A stretch of 64,000 nucleotides of DNA, taken from assembly GCA_017506895.1 (NCBI GenBank), contig JAFWBV010000005.1, positions 67,983 through 131,982 on the forward strand. The letters are read 5' to 3'. Position 1 is the stretch's first letter. Each line of letters begins with the position of its first letter. A model generated the notes under the pieces. The model was not told where the DNA came from. It saw only the letters and a program-made list of their open reading frames with translations, and ran no database searches. The position numbers and the translations under genes were made by a program. Origin of the DNA: Candidatus Saccharimonadota bacterium. GTDB lineage: Bacteria > Patescibacteriota > Saccharimonadia > Saccharimonadales > Saccharimonadaceae. This document shows, piece after piece, positions 13,048 to 41,980 of the stretch.

Positions 13048-15120
13048 ATGGCTAAATTTAAATTAGTATCAAAGTTTCAGCCGACCGGCGATCAGCCGTC
13101 AGCAATTCGTACGCTTGTAGACGGGCTTAATTCTGGTGTTCACGAACAAACGTTGCTGGGTGTAACTGGTTCAGGTAAAACTTTTACAATGGCAAACATT
13201 ATTGAACAGACCCAAAGACCGACTTTGATTCTGGCGCACAATAAGACTTTGGCAGCGCAGCTTTATTCCGAGTTTCGGGAATTTTTCCCGGAAAACGAAG
13301 TGCACTATTTTGTATCATATTTTGATTATTATCAACCGGAAGCATATATTGCATCGACCGATACATATATTGAAAAAGACTCAGCAATTAACGATGAGAT
13401 TGATAGATTAAGGCATGGTGCGACGGAAGCCTTGCTGACGCGACGTGACGTAATTGTAGTGGCGTCGGTATCGTGTATTTATGGTATCGGTTCACCAGCA
13501 AATTATACCGAAATGTCACTGCCGATGTGGCGAGTAAACGGTGAGTGGAAGGTGGCGCACGAAGGTTCTTTCTCGAGAGCTCTCAATGGCGCTAGCCCAA
13601 GCTTTACTCTATCGAAAGAATCCTTCGATGCACCACTTTCGCAGCTCGATTTCATTCGCCGATTGGTAGCGATGCAGTATCATCGAAATGATCTCGCATT
13701 CGAGCGAGGAAATTTCCGCGTGATGGGTGACACGATTGATTTATTCCCAGCAAACGGCGAATTTGCTTATCGATTCGAGTTTGGTTTTGATACACTAGAA
13801 GATGTCAAAATCGTGGAGCCATTGACAATGGCGGTGCGGGAAAAACCTGATTATGTGCATATTTTCCCAAATACACATTATGCGACGCCAATGGACCAAC
13901 TAGAAAAGGCTCTAGTGACGATTCGTGCTGAATATGAAGACAGAATGAAGTACTTTGAAAAACACCAAAAATATCTGGAAGCGCAAAGATTGTCACAGCG
14001 CACTAAGTATGATTTGGAGATGCTCAAAGAAACTGGTTTCGTAAAGGGAATTGAAAATTATTCTAGGCATCTAGATGGACGAAAACCCGGAGAGCCACCT
14101 TCGACACTGCTCGATTTCTTCCCGAAAGATTTTTTGCTCATTGTAGATGAATCCCATATGACTTTACCGCAAGTGCGCGGAATGTATAACGGTGACCACG
14201 CACGTAAAGTAACTTTGGTTGATTATGGTTTTCGTTTGCCGTCTGCGCTCGACAATCGCCCTTTGACTTACGGCGAATTTCAAAAACATATTAACCAAGC
14301 TATCTATGTATCTGCGACACCGGGAGAATACGAACTAGAGGTTTCACCTGCTCCGGCCGAACAAGTGATTCGCCCTACTGGGCTACTTGATCCTGAAATT
14401 GAAGTCCGAAGTTCAGATGGACAAATTGATGATTTAATGGAAGAGATAGACAAAAGAATCGCTAAGGGCCAAAGGACGCTGATTACGACTTTGACAAAAC
14501 GGATGGCCGAAGATTTGACTGACCATCTGAAAGAACGCGGCGTAAAGACAGCTTATATTCATTCGGATATTGATACTTTGGAGCGGGGAGATATTTTGCG
14601 AGATTTACGAGAAGGCGTTTATGATGTTTTGGTGGGGATTAACTTACTACGCGAGGGATTAGATTTACCAGAAGTATCGCTTGTAGCGATTTTAGATGCC
14701 GACAAGGAAGGATTCTTGCGTTCTGAATCGGCCTTAATTCAAACGATCGGGCGAGCGGCGCGTCACGAAGAAGGCAAAGTAATCATGTACGCCAATTTCA
14801 TTACAGAAAGCATGGAGAAAGCGATTTCAGAGACGAATCGCCGACGTGAGATTCAAAAAGAATATAATGAAAAACATCATATTACGCCGCATTCCGTCCA
14901 GAAAGAAATATCGATGGGACTGCGTGCTATCATACCAGAGAAGGAGAAGGAGAATAAACTCGATGTCCGTAAAATACCAAAAGATGAATTGCCGGCTTTA
15001 ATCAAACAACTATCTTCCGAGATGCAACTAGCTGCGGCAAACCTAGAATTTGAGCGTGCTGCCGCACTACGTGATGAAATTGAAAGAATTAAAGAATTCA
15101 TGGAAGGAAAGAAAAAATAA
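13048..15120 (+). CDS. uvrB: Excinuclease ABC subunit B, carrying an in-frame palindromic insertion
   Basis: PTGDQP, GVTGSGKT, YFDYYQPEAY, DESH, C-terminal UVR domain; ATG at 13048 follows TGATATAAT. Confidence 0.98.
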   Translation: MAKFKLVSKFQPTGDQPSAIRTLVDGLNSGVHEQTLLGVTGSGKTFTMANIIEQTQRPTLILAHNKTLAAQLYSEFREFFPENEVHYFVSYFDYYQPEAYIASTDTYIEKDSAINDEIDRLRHGATEALLTRRDVIVVASVSCIYGIGSPANYTEMSLPMWRVNGEWKVAHEGSFSRALNGASPSFTLSKESFDAPLSQLDFIRRLVAMQYHRNDLAFERGNFRVMGDTIDLFPANGEFAYRFEFGFDTLEDVKIVEPLTMAVREKPDYVHIFPNTHYATPMDQLEKALVTIRAEYEDRMKYFEKHQKYLEAQRLSQRTKYDLEMLKETGFVKGIENYSRHLDGRKPGEPPSTLLDFFPKDFLLIVDESHMTLPQVRGMYNGDHARKVTLVDYGFRLPSALDNRPLTYGEFQKHINQAIYVSATPGEYELEVSPAPAEQVIRPTGLLDPEIEVRSSDGQIDDLMEEIDKRIAKGQRTLITTLTKRMAEDLTDHLKERGVKTAYIHSDIDTLERGDILRDLREGVYDVLVGINLLREGLDLPEVSLVAILDADKEGFLRSESALIQTIGRAARHEEGKVIMYANFITESMEKAISETNRRREIQKEYNEKHHITPHSVQKEISMGLRAIIPEKEKENKLDVRKIPKDELPALIKQLSSEMQLAAANLEFERAAALRDEIERIKEFMEGKKK
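13548..13640 (+). repeat. 93-bp palindromic element inserted in frame in uvrB
   Basis: Nested stems GAAGGTGG/CCACTTTC and GAAGGTTCTTTC/GAAAGAATCCTTC; 38-nt core shared with the gatB element. Confidence 0.85.
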
Positions 15121-24663: not shown

Positions 24664-24731
24664 ATCAAATAAGAATCAAAAATAAGGCAATGCGACTTTA
24701 TCTAACAATAAAGAATACGAGGTTGAAATAA
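24660..24731 (+). CDS. Candidate 23-aa micro-ORF coupling the HEPN-like gene to gatB
   Basis: AGGAG SD; ATG overlaps upstream TGA (ATGA); its TAA overlaps the gatB ATG (TAATG). Confidence 0.45.
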   Translation: MNQIRIKNKAMRLYLTIKNTRLK

Positions 24732-26209
24732 TGAAATATATACCGACAATTGGAATCGAATGCCACGTACAACTTTGTACAAAAACTAAATTGTTTTCCG
24801 AAGTGGATAACGATGCACGGGGGAAAGAACCAAATTCTTGCGTTTCACCAGTGGATTACGCTTTGCCCGGAATGTTGCCAAGATTAAATGGCGAAGCAAT
24901 TAGATTGGCAATCCTAGCCGGGCGAGCCATGAATTGCGAAATTAACACTTGGTCACGTTTTGATCGAAAACACTATTTTTATCCTGATTCACCTAAAGGA
25001 TATCAAATTACTCAATTTTATGAACCGATTATTGGTGCAGGATATGTTGAGCTACCGTCTGGAACCAAAATTCGAATTGAACACGCACATCTCGAGGGCG
25101 ATGCTGGAAAATTAACACATTTTAATAGTTACTCCTTAGTAGATTTAAACCGTGTAGATACTCCTTTAATTGAAATTGTTTCGATGCCCGACATTCATTC
25201 GGCGAGTGACGCCCATGATTATGCGAAGGAACTTTGGAGATTGATGTGCTTTGCTGGCGTGACATACGGTGATTTATACAACGGGAATATGCGATTTGAT
25301 GTAAATATATCATTGGCGCCAGAAGGAGCAGAGAAATTAGGCACACGCGCAGAAGTTAAAAATCTTAATTCATTTAGAAGCGTAGAAAGAGCAGTAGAAT
25401 ACGAAATAAAACGCCAGAGTAAAATCTTAGATGCTGGACAAAAGGTAGTGCAAGAAACTAGGGGCTGGAATGACGCTAAGGGTGAAACAACGGGGCAGCG
25501 ATCAAAGGAAGAAGCAAAAGATTATCGTTATATGCCGGAGCCAGATTTGCCACCGATTAATCTTTCGGCTGAATTTATCGAAAATGAGTCGGCTAAATTA
25601 CCTTTGATGCCATCGGATTACCGCGAAATATTTAATGGCATTATTAAATCAGACATCTTGGAAGTGTTGCTAGATTATCCGAAGCTTATGGAGAAATTAA
25701 GAGAACTCGGAAAGGTCCCCGGTCGAGAGCGCTCAAGGCCGCTAGGCCAAGCTTCACTCTCTCCCGTGAACCTTCCAAGTTCTCAAATTGCAACAATCTC
25801 TAATTTATTTACATCAGTGTTACTGGCGGAGGAAAAGTCGGCGGAATATTTGAACGATTTGCCATCGACAGCCGATTTGGCAGAACTAGCTGAAATGAAT
25901 GAGAAAAAAGAATTGTCATCAACAGCAACCAAGGAAGTATTTTTGAAATTATTTGATCCGCAGATGAAGAATCATGGAGCAAAACAAATCGCAAAGGAGC
26001 TGGGACTTATTCAAGAAAATGACCTTGGTGCTCTCGAAAAAATAGTAGACGTGGTACTATCTAAGCCGGAAACGCAAAAAGCACAGGAAGATTTCCGAGC
26101 AGGTTCAGAAAAAGTACTCGGATTCTTGGTGGGGCAGGTAATGAAAGAATCGCGTGGTAAAGCTAACCCGGGCGCAGTACAAGAGATTCTCCGCAAAAAA
26201 CTACAATGA
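24731..26209 (+). CDS. gatB: Asp/Glu-tRNA amidotransferase subunit B, carrying an in-frame palindromic insertion
   Basis: IGIECHVQL, RKHYFYPDSPKGYQITQ, DYRYMPEPDLPP, GQVMKESRGKANP. Confidence 0.97.
   Translation: MKYIPTIGIECHVQLCTKTKLFSEVDNDARGKEPNSCVSPVDYALPGMLPRLNGEAIRLAILAGRAMNCEINTWSRFDRKHYFYPDSPKGYQITQFYEPIIGAGYVELPSGTKIRIEHAHLEGDAGKLTHFNSYSLVDLNRVDTPLIEIVSMPDIHSASDAHDYAKELWRLMCFAGVTYGDLYNGNMRFDVNISLAPEGAEKLGTRAEVKNLNSFRSVERAVEYEIKRQSKILDAGQKVVQETRGWNDAKGETTGQRSKEEAKDYRYMPEPDLPPINLSAEFIENESAKLPLMPSDYREIFNGIIKSDILEVLLDYPKLMEKLRELGKVPGRERSRPLGQASLSPVNLPSSQIATISNLFTSVLLAEEKSAEYLNDLPSTADLAELAEMNEKKELSSTATKEVFLKLFDPQMKNHGAKQIAKELGLIQENDLGALEKIVDVVLSKPETQKAQEDFRAGSEKVLGFLVGQVMKESRGKANPGAVQEILRKKLQ
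25701..25784 (+). repeat. 84-bp palindromic element inserted in frame in gatB
   Basis: Stems GAGAACT/AGTTCTC and GGAAAGGT/ACCTTCC; core 25723-25760 matches uvrB 13573-13610 at 33/38. Confidence 0.85.
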
Positions 26210-39839: not shown

Positions 39840-40847
39840 ATGGATGAGCAGCCAAAAGCTGATTATTCCCAAGATACTTGGAAAAAAATAGTAGAATTAT
39901 ATCCAGAAGCGAATTTTTTGCAATCTCCGGCTTATGGCCAAATGAATGAACTGCTCGGTGATAAAGCTCTATTTTTGGATTTCGATGGAAAAGGTTACGC
40001 TCTCGCAATTGTCAGAAATGCTAAACGTGGGAGATATTTAGAGATTCCATGCGGACCATTGATTGACTGGAACGATAAAAAGAAAGTAAAAGTTGTGTTT
40101 GAGACAATAAAAACCGTCGCAAAAAAAGAAAAGTGCGTATTTGTGCGAATAAGACCACAACTAAACAAAACTGATAAGAATATGAAACTTTTGGCTGAGT
40201 TGGGTTTGGTCGAATCGCCAATGCATCTTGCAGCCGAGCACACAGTAATGATTGATTTAACAAAAACCGAAGATGAATTACTTGCAGATATGAGACGCCA
40301 GACTCGGTACGAAGTCAGGCAAGCGGAAAAACAGGGTATAGACGTCACTCGTGATAATTCAGAAGAAATCTTTGAAGAGTTTCACCAGGTGCAGGCAGAG
40401 ACCGCAAAAAGACAGGGTTTTGTGCCACCGTCTTTAAAGGTTTTGATGGCCGAAAGAGCAGCTTTTTCTAACAATGCGACAATATATGTAGCCAAAACCG
40501 CCGATGGAGAAGTGATTGCTTATGGGCTCATTATAAAAGCCGGACGTGAAGGAGATTATTACGAAGCCGCTTCTACGCTCCTAAATCGCAAACTACCTGG
40601 AGCATATGCTTTGTTGTGGCAAGCTATGAAAGATTTAAAGAAAGAAGGATTCGAGAGATTTAATCTATGGGGAATTGCACCGGCTGGACAGCCGAATCAT
40701 CGCTATGCTGGGGTGACTACTTTTAAGACTGGGTTTGGGGGCGAAGTAGTAGAATATGTGCCGGCACACGATATAGTAATTTCACGGATGGGCTATTTAA
40801 AGGATCTCGTCGTCGAAAAAGCACGCAAGAAAAGGAGACGTTTATGA
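39840..40847 (+). CDS. FemABX-family peptidoglycan bridge aminoacyl ligase
   Basis: NFLQS, LEIPCGP, MRRQTRYEVRQAEKQG, FNLWG, FKTGFGG. Confidence 0.92.
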   Translation: MDEQPKADYSQDTWKKIVELYPEANFLQSPAYGQMNELLGDKALFLDFDGKGYALAIVRNAKRGRYLEIPCGPLIDWNDKKKVKVVFETIKTVAKKEKCVFVRIRPQLNKTDKNMKLLAELGLVESPMHLAAEHTVMIDLTKTEDELLADMRRQTRYEVRQAEKQGIDVTRDNSEEIFEEFHQVQAETAKRQGFVPPSLKVLMAERAAFSNNATIYVAKTADGEVIAYGLIIKAGREGDYYEAASTLLNRKLPGAYALLWQAMKDLKKEGFERFNLWGIAPAGQPNHRYAGVTTFKTGFGGEVVEYVPAHDIVISRMGYLKDLVVEKARKKRRRL

Positions 40848-41980
40848 TAGTAAAAACTAAAACAGCGCATTCTCGACACGCTTCGTCACGCCCGTCGTTA
40901 CGAGGTTCCTTACTCAATCCGCTCCCGTCGTCGCGGACGGTTTCGAATTGCACTATTTCTGGTTTTTCTATCATAGATGCGACTTCTCGTGAGATTTGGG
41001 ACGAATTTATTAAATCTCATCCGGAATCTAACTTTTTGCAGTCGTGGGATTTTTATGAGTTTCATGCTTCGCGCGGTAAAAAGGTTGTACGAAGGCTGGC
41101 CTACAATGATGATAAGATTGTGGGGGCATATGCAGGAGTAGTTGAAACGGCAAAACGAGGACGCTATATGGCAATTGCAGGTGGGCCGATACTAGACTGG
41201 GCAGATAAAAAGTTAATTAGGGCTTTATTTGAAGATATTAAGGCTGAAGGGAAAAAGGCCGGATGCGTATTTGTAAGAGTGAGACCACAGTTAGAATTGT
41301 CTGATAAATCTTTGAAGCTTATGAACGATTTGGGTTTGAAACGTGCACCGATGTATTTGTCGGTGGAATTTGCAGGAATTTTGAATCTAGAAAAAACCGA
41401 AGAAGAGATACTGGCTGGGGCTTCACAGGGTTTTCGCAGAAAACTACGTAAAGCGATGAAAAATGGAATTGAAATATTGGCGGAGACTAGTGATGAAGCG
41501 ATTAAAGAGTTTTGCCGACTAGAAAAACTACACGCTGAGAGACAAAAGTATGTGGCGTTTTCTGGAGAGTTTTTGAAAAAACAATTTGAAGCTTTCCGCA
41601 GTGGCGAAGAGGTTATTATCTATACAGCCCGCAAAGATGGCGAGACGCTGGCGCAGAATTTTATGATTTTTTATGGTCCAGAAGCGAGCTATCATTACGG
41701 AGTATCATCAGAGCTGGGAACGAAGTATTCGGCGGCACCGCTTCTCCATATGGAAGCGATGAAAGAAGCACGAAAACGTGGTTGTATTCGTTATAATTTA
41801 TGGGGGATTGTTGAACCAGATGAGACTTCACACCGGTTTTATGGAGTTTCAGAGTTTAAGCGATCATTCGGTTGCGAAGAATTGCGCTATACGCCGGCCC
41901 ACGATATGGTTTTGAAGCCTTTGGCCTACCAAAAAACAAAGATAGTGGAAACTGCTCGCAAGAAAATCCGACATGTATAG
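40844..41980 (+). CDS. Second FemABX-family ligase with GC-rich N-terminal extension
   Basis: NFLQSW, IAGGP, FRRKLRKA, YNLWG, FKRSFG; ATGA overlap with the first. Confidence 0.92.
   Translation: MIVKTKTAHSRHASSRPSLRGSLLNPLPSSRTVSNCTISGFSIIDATSREIWDEFIKSHPESNFLQSWDFYEFHASRGKKVVRRLAYNDDKIVGAYAGVVETAKRGRYMAIAGGPILDWADKKLIRALFEDIKAEGKKAGCVFVRVRPQLELSDKSLKLMNDLGLKRAPMYLSVEFAGILNLEKTEEEILAGASQGFRRKLRKAMKNGIEILAETSDEAIKEFCRLEKLHAERQKYVAFSGEFLKKQFEAFRSGEEVIIYTARKDGETLAQNFMIFYGPEASYHYGVSSELGTKYSAAPLLHMEAMKEARKRGCIRYNLWGIVEPDETSHRFYGVSEFKRSFGCEELRYTPAHDMVLKPLAYQKTKIVETARKKIRHV
40864..40954 (+). repeat. GC-rich structured segment in the 5' coding region of the second Fem ligase
   Basis: About 60% GC by manual count; hairpins TCGTCACG/CGTTACGA and CCGTC/GACGG; imperfect terminal pairing. 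Confidence 0.5.

Follow-up and report, generated by a model that had tools for sequence, protein, structure and literature searches.

A palindromic element in frame in uvrB of a Saccharibacteria genome and a dispersed hairpin family that shares its tip

Described palindromic elements compared with the uvrB hairpin

The Rickettsia palindromic elements RPE-1 to RPE-10, described by Ogata et al., are about 150 bp in size, are conserved over their length, and encode one conserved peptide per family (PMC10969869). A comparable element, a 93-nt nested hairpin, lies in frame in the uvrB gene of a Candidatus Saccharimonadota bacterium (assembly GCA_017506895.1), at positions 13548-13640 of the stretch of 64,000 nucleotides from contig JAFWBV010000005.1 that was analyzed here and is called the window. 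The hairpin belongs to a family of small repeats, probably selfish and non-autonomous, that is designated family A. Like the RPEs, family A consists of small palindromes in a reduced-genome bacterium, with many copies in frame in unrelated housekeeping genes that are left intact, a peptide added to the host protein, and no known transposase. An earlier sequence-only reading of the window had drawn the RPE analogy, which stands as regards an in-frame, multi-copy palindrome but not as regards the build: what the copies have in common is no more than a 27-nt tip and a short helix, and the arms are private to each locus and partly host-derived. Use of at least four reading frames, orientation by replication strand, and occurrence across phyla also set family A apart from the published descriptions (PMC10969869). 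The kind of element is known from the RPE-like in-frame palindromes; its build and likely mechanism are new. Literature searches found no publication describing such elements in Saccharibacteria or Patescibacteria, in agreement with the suspicion that the family was undescribed. In-frame selfish palindromes have so far been a Rickettsia curiosity, and the same outcome is seen here in an unrelated phylum of reduced genomes with a different build.

The superfamilies of repetitive extragenic palindromic (REP) sequences carry GTAG or CGTC tags (PMC3733652). REPs and REPINs are similar to family A in being short, structured, high-copy hairpins without a gene of their own that are thought to act as single-stranded DNA. 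However, REPs are extragenic, have a conserved tagged stem, and co-occur with a REP-associated tyrosine transposase (RAYT), whereas the stem of family A is variable, two thirds of its copies are intragenic, and most of its carriers have no RAYT. Transposition in the IS200/IS605 family of insertion sequences (IS) depends on hairpins, and its orientation is tied to the replication strand. The orientation of family A, with GC skew as proxy, is tied to the replication strand as well, but family A has no linked TnpA or TnpB and no conserved left and right ends, and it has an inverted duplication of the flank. Miniature inverted-repeat transposable elements (MITEs) are likewise small, non-autonomous, capable of forming hairpins, and sometimes in frame in genes (PMC10969869). 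They have family-wide terminal inverted repeats, direct repeats of the target site, and a parent IS, none of which was seen for family A. In quasipalindrome template-switch mutagenesis (the Ripley model, studied in Escherichia coli by the Lovett laboratory), one arm of an imperfect repeat reportedly serves as template for the other. The arms of family A are similar in that they are private, self-correcting, and outward-growing, one being ancestral and the other an inverted copy. This mechanism is established for point and cluster mutations; a dispersed repeat that keeps a conserved tip is not known to live by it. Long inverted repeats in translated genes, with both arms coding, are also maintained inside genes; they are described as having no shared mobile core and arms that encode conserved protein regions, whereas the arms of family A form a non-conserved loop around a dispersed core.

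The uvrB hairpin, its copies, and their arms

The host gene occupies 13048-15120 on the + strand and encodes 690 aa, with a likely ATG start at 13048, a stop at 15120, and an open reading frame (ORF) that is open from 12919. Solved UvrB structures were matched at E 2e-256 with HMMER. As had been read from the sequence, the element at 13548-13640 (+ strand) is a nested hairpin with an outer stem GAAGGTGG/CCACTTTC and an inner stem GAAGGTTCTTTC/GAAAGAATCCTTC. Its predicted RNA fold has -41.4 kcal/mol, compared with -22.0 ± 3.3 kcal/mol for 200 dinucleotide shuffles, none of which was as good (0/200; z -5.88). The 93-nt insert encodes WKVAHEGSFSRALNGASPSFTLSKESFDAPLS and is open in the frame of the gene. 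On the + strand the element consists of a left arm (13548-13572), the 5' half of a closing helix (TC + GAGAG, 13573-13579), the conserved 27-nt tip with a 4-bp helix and a tetraloop inside (13580-13606), the 3' half of the closing helix (CTCTA + TC, 13607-13613), and a right arm (13614-13640). The closing helix covaries between copies, and its TC is part of a UC/UC internal loop. The two arms are complementary at 22 of 25 positions, and the last bases of the right arm overlap the ancestral P-L-S codons.

In an alignment of UvrB with 29 relatives, the conserved Y is separated from IRRL by 49 residues here versus 18 in the insert-free orthologs, which come from the genus itself (five species, L018-L022) and from elsewhere in the order (seven other families, L027-L033). 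The 31-aa excess proposed by the sequence-only reading is thereby confirmed, and since the insert-free orthologs are shorter, the objection that orthologs have equal length fails. The match between this excess and the length of the hairpin holds against these orthologs but is partly coincidental: relative to L017, the closest insert-free relative, the surplus is 28 aa (84 nt), atop an older expansion of 3 aa. The history of the site is layered, a subclade having first gained a few residues ending in G-x-W. A single clean insertion into uvrB, as first assumed, is not what was found; the site is a recurrent hot spot with a nested history. The HMMER alignment splits at the hairpin, where query residues 203-243 replace residues 161-170 of chain 9gy7_E. 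By the Bacillus caldotenax structures, this region is probably the start of domain 2, the UvrA-binding domain.

The source genome is 715 kb in size, in 12 contigs, and 92% complete. The nearest named records are metagenome-assembled genomes (MAGs) of Candidatus Saccharibacteria and Candidatus Nanosyncoccus from animal guts. Identical UvrB and GatB proteins, insert included, occur in many independent assemblies (19 contigs each). An assembly artefact is ruled out by these assemblies and by the presence of the element in isolate genomes. All members of the species cluster are equal in length, and no polymorphism of filled and empty sites was found at the strain level. An intein, an intron, and, less firmly, programmed bypass were set aside: the insert is open in frame and has no splicing motifs, and elements lie in genes in both orientations.

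The core of the hairpin matches five further places of the source genome with blastn: gatB, C5:158088, C2:17989, and two near C3:2200 (contig and position). Every copy of the core in this genome is the tip of a long hairpin, and the arm sequences are unrelated between loci. The covariance model R1, built from a hand-made alignment of seven copies (A1), finds seven family-A copies in the source genome, with 73.8 bits for the uvrB copy. Of 101 genomes of the genus, 68 have matches to R1 (1-22 per genome, about 430 in all), the genomes searched here and below being samples.

Only the 27-nt tip and the short closing helix are shared across copies; the long arms differ per locus, yet are paired. 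The tip has the consensus CGCTC-MR-GGSC-GCTM-GSCC-RAG-YYTWY and contains two CGCT motifs. Among 37 copies, its inner 4-bp helix is swapped between GGCC/GGCC and GGGC/GCCC (21:16), and the UC/UC internal loop beneath the closing helix is unpaired in 25. Standard pairs fill 85.7% of the pair cells in the alignment of these copies (A2), versus 63.2% in shuffles; the covariation score is 0.57 versus 0.17 and was reached by none of 500 shuffles, and at most 53% are paired when partners are slid by 1-3 columns, although A2 leans towards structure because it was fitted to the model. The hand-built A1 agrees with the pairing picture of A2. The tip also holds XhoI, SacI, NheI, and HindIII sites; a cloning-vector remnant is ruled out by the variation of the core and its spread over hundreds of natural loci.

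The second family-A element of the window is in frame in gatB (24731-26209, + strand). It lies at 25701-25784 on the + strand with the tip at 25730-25756, scores 81.3 bits with R1, and consists again of an ancestral left arm and a right arm that is its inverted copy. The recurrence of the core in gatB, noticed by the sequence-only reading, is well founded: the gatB core (25723-25760) is identical to the uvrB core at 33 of 38 positions (blastn E 1e-4 in the window and 1e-3 in the genome), and both copies have covariance model E values of 1e-17 to 1e-19. The two cores are read in different frames. The data support a multi-copy palindrome family whose members sit in the reading frame of essential genes and contribute new peptide sequence.

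Of 37 copies taken with 1.5-kb flanks, 24 are inside ORFs of >200 aa, 17 in sense and 7 in antisense orientation. Twenty-three copies could be phased; 17 sense copies are distributed over all three phases and 6 antisense copies are in one phase, which yields four unrelated peptides (examples are SGALxGASPSLTPS, GHAQGRSAxP, and RERSRPLGQAS, and SExxKLGxAxLS in antisense). The uvrB copy escaped this phasing by core pattern, and its peptide SRALNGASPSFT is of the SGALxGASPSLTPS type. A sub-variant with a GCTCG loop is used in the phase in which the GCTAG variant is a stop codon. This usage and the several frames place the conservation at the level of DNA and not of peptide.

The comparison of filled sites with related sequences indicates where the arms come from. 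In four UvrB orthologs (L266-L269, 87-93% identical), site, frame, and core of the insert are all as in the source genome. Their inner arm is ATTCTCCG/CGGAGAA and that of the source genome is TTCTTTC/GAAAGAA, altered on both sides, a compensatory change from CCG/CGG to TTC/GAA. The outer arms differ in all five, yet are complementary at 19-24 of 25 positions within each hairpin. Between species the arms are 56-76% alike, as compared with 76-81% identity for the rest of the gene. In L266, the 93%-identical ortholog, the codons E-W-K-V-A-H-E-G are ordinary unpaired flank; in the source genome the left arm is made of the same bases (W-K-V-A-H-E-G), and its inverted copy, the right arm, is absent from L266 and from the insert-free orthologs. 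The left arm of the gatB element matches the empty site of L054, an insert-free ortholog with 86% identity, relative to which about 62 nt are net new, equal to the core plus the inverted copy of the flank. In a dus-like gene, which carries the other of the two core families, it is the right arm that matches the codons S-K-H-S of the empty site, the left arm being new; this insert is common to three species, in which the arms differ but are complementary. No direct target-site duplication was seen between filled and empty gatB sites or at the uvrB junctions, the flank copy being inverted. The new arm lies 3' of the core on the G-rich strand at all three loci (uvrB, gatB, and the dus-like gene), a rule that is provisional, given the small number of loci and the fast evolution of these sites.

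The written strand of family A is on the GC-skew-positive strand in all seven copies of the source genome. A second hairpin family of this genome, family B, has the opposite sense in 18 of 18 copies located in regions of clear skew. The host genes are on either strand; on contig C5, for instance, eight copies of family B all point the same way, although four are situated in plus-strand and four in minus-strand genes. Across the genus, the local skew agrees with 31 of 32 family-A copies (p 1.5e-8). In other phyla, where skews are weak, the agreement is 21 to 11. The strand rule therefore favours a DNA-level, replication-linked process and argues against a role at the RNA level.

Family A is not restricted to this small-genome lineage, in which the sequence-only reading had placed it. 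When one genome per prokaryote species was scanned for the exact pattern, >119 stretches were hit, and R1 confirms full hairpins with private arms in Paceibacterota, Kaiserbacteria, Minisyncoccia, and other Patescibacteria, in primate-gut isolates of Bifidobacterium, and in a Peptoniphilus MAG. Counted over whole genomes, two Bifidobacterium have 33 and 58 copies, the Peptoniphilus MAG has 18, and two Patescibacteria have 13 and 28. Among Patescibacteria the family is scattered: of 151 sampled genomes, 3 had it when the filters were stricter. Some hits with the label Bulleidia or Clostridiales come from short MAG contigs and could be mis-binned. A stretch of 37 nt, comprising the closing helix and the tip, is identical between Bifidobacterium callitrichos and a member of the genus; such identity between gut Saccharibacteria and Bifidobacterium is a hint that DNA has passed between epibionts and lineages that may be their hosts. 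The Bifidobacterium copies (L146:3065-3337, L170:17-207, and those of the whole genomes G117 and G121) have private arms of 25-30 bp and sometimes occur as inverted pairs 60-140 nt apart. In the Peptoniphilus MAG, five terminator-like family-A hairpins are located in a tandem array of 260-620-nt units (L160:2560-3650), which also holds other GC-rich palindromic repeats of the GTCATCCCGAGCGAGC... type.

Possible modes of spread

Family A is best explained, with fair though incomplete assurance, as a selfish, non-autonomous DNA hairpin whose tip is copied and whose stem is made by hairpin-templated copying on one replication strand. The travelling unit would be a module of about 40-45 nt, consisting of the 27-nt tip with its small helix and tetraloop and the short closing helix above the UC/UC loop. 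The long stem would not be carried along. Host sequence beside the point of insertion would serve as one arm and its inverted copy as the second, and hairpin-templated copying (template switching or quasipalindrome correction) would then keep them complementary. The process would act on the single-stranded DNA of one replication strand, without an element-encoded or linked transposase, and for this reason the copies would be uniformly oriented with respect to GC skew. Surviving copies would be those that keep the frame open in tolerant surface loops, which in UvrB would give a translated loop of 28-31 aa early in domain 2. Existing hairpins are proposed to attract new cores, by which a few loops would become hot spots of fast turnover. 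The template-switch or fold-back step and the route of the core to a new locus are the parts that we infer. SbcD, a subunit of the hairpin nuclease, was not found in the source genome (92% complete), and XseA is present; the lack of SbcD fits a tolerance of long palindromes and proves nothing. If this mechanism is true, DNA is able to spread without an enzyme of its own, and essential proteins have a steady source of new surface loops. The inserts inflate and scramble the marker-gene alignments used for candidate phyla radiation (CPR) phylogeny and annotation.

Several points weigh against this explanation. Template switching explains the arms well, but alone it does not explain the copying of the core to a distant locus. 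The unpaired bases of the tip are near-invariant across phyla, beyond the need of a merely stable hairpin, and this suggests recognition by a putative specific protein. The direction of replication was read by proxy, from the GC skew of draft contigs. The ancestry of the arms is provisional, as it is drawn from three fast-evolving loci at which the alignment of a few codons is a judgement. The AlphaFold2 model of UvrB, made with 51 close homologs, is too poor for placement of the loop (mean pLDDT 41.3, pTM 0.38), and the position of the loop was therefore taken from the alignment to solved UvrB structures. Translation of the uvrB insert, like intact transcription across it, is something we infer.

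The selfish-hairpin explanation may be extended to a transposase-free mobile element, an extension that we put forward tentatively and regard as doubtful in its full form. A tip of about 40 nt of single-stranded DNA would be recognized by a universal host factor of replication or repair, be copied to new sites during one-strand synthesis, build its stem by fold-back copying of the flank, and re-enter existing hairpins by preference; it would act as an engine of fast loop evolution in essential proteins across phyla (CPR, Actinobacteria, and Firmicutes). Conceivable candidates for the factor are a type IA topoisomerase, primase, or a polymerase that stalls at the tip.

A REP-like or IS200/IS605-like mode, in which the tip is cut and pasted by a trans-acting enzyme for single-stranded DNA (a Y1/HUH transposase of the RAYT type, or an unrecognized analogue) working on the lagging-strand template and the arms are extended later by template switching, is considered unlikely. 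Strict orientation by replication strand is a behaviour of the IS200/IS605 family, and the conservation of the unpaired tip bases and of the UC/UC loop across phyla is as expected for a protein recognition site. Y1 transposases (PF01797) do exist in the genus, in 7 of 101 genomes versus 68 of 101 with copies, but the genomes with Y1 are not the copy-rich ones, and in those genomes the Y1 genes are never beside the core. PF01797 is absent from the source genome, from the two Bifidobacterium genomes with 33 and 58 copies, and from the Peptoniphilus MAG with 18. These results speak against the HUH/RAYT/IS200-type transposase in trans that the sequence-only reading had in mind. Also, neighbour clustering of 119 loci gave no recurrent neighbour gene, and the GTAG/CGTC tag of REP superfamilies was not seen at the base of the stem in alignments of 37 and 47 copies. 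The core had no match in collections of plasmids, phages, and viral contigs. The IS200-type Y1 genes of the genus encode about 155 aa, examples being L260, L261, and L262 (genomes G023, G067, and G094).

A function selected by the host, either as an mRNA structure (for stability, pausing, processing, or termination) or as a useful peptide loop of UvrB or GatB, is improbable. It would account for the strong structural conservation with covariation and for an insert that is fixed in the species cluster, and the intergenic copies of Parcubacteria-type genomes and Peptoniphilus are hairpins between an A-tract and a T-tract that resemble terminators. However, the uvrB copy is not followed by a T-run in the sequence, and Rfam scans around 24 copies, with E limits of 10, 5, or 1, gave no relevant family. 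The orientation follows the replication strand and not the gene strand, with 7 of 24 genic copies in antisense, and the same DNA yields unrelated peptides in four frames. Presence or absence of the element and the type of core vary between close relatives at the same site.

Local growth of palindromes without mobility, with convergent or chance likeness of the tips, draws on arms that grow and are corrected in place and on empty sites that are already weak quasipalindromes in some cases (gatB), but it is hardly credible, since a 27-nt tip is common to hundreds of loci, a Bifidobacterium isolate shares 37 identical nt with a genus member, and 0.00 matches to the pattern are expected in the window. 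A purely local origin is effectively refuted by how many copies there are and how alike their tips are in sequence.

Hot spots and other palindromic repeats

Members of the genus differ at the uvrB site: some have no insert, and in others it measures about 10 aa, 31 aa, or as much as about 110 aa, with nested hairpins and family-B cores among the longer ones. A set of 121 UvrB proteins with 84-98% identity shows about 100 different sequences at this site, and about 13 have the family-A peptide. The gatB site turns over likewise, and a family-A core is found there in two other species. Such hot spots may arise as existing hairpins attract new cores, as only these loops tolerate inserts, or by both. 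Nested or tandem elements were seen in L056 (gatB, genome G044), L097 (dus-like gene, G044), and L024 and L025 (uvrB, G016 and G010). They include a family-B-type hairpin within a partial family-A core and inserts of about 80-110 aa made up of several hairpins.

Family B has a GC-rich core of about 85 nt within private AT-rich arms. It is more abundant than family A in the source genome, with about 21 copies, of which 16 are in ORFs of >200 aa; examples are C8:5967-6078, C4:16709-16825, C12:32318-32426, C11:41757-41870, and C5:32809-32922. In related species, the hot spots of uvrB and gatB hold cores of the family-B type. The third coding palindrome of the window, at 40839-40979 on the + strand (141 nt, z -4.64), has a degenerate family-B core and lies at the 5' end of a gene for a Fem-type ligase, of which it makes up the first ~35 codons.

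Other repeats were observed in the source genome. A third hairpin family is represented by C10:1731-1835 and C5:25645-25731, which share the core ...CTCGCGGCTGTCTTCACAGCTCGC... inside private arms. Two long hairpins, C11:6850-6965 and C6:254-440, have the common inner motif AAAAATnTCCCCAGC ... AATAAGGAnATTTTTTCTTGCC and may be a small RNA or a riboswitch-like element. The window also contains two tandem units of 61 nt, 93% identical, at positions 1276-1397.

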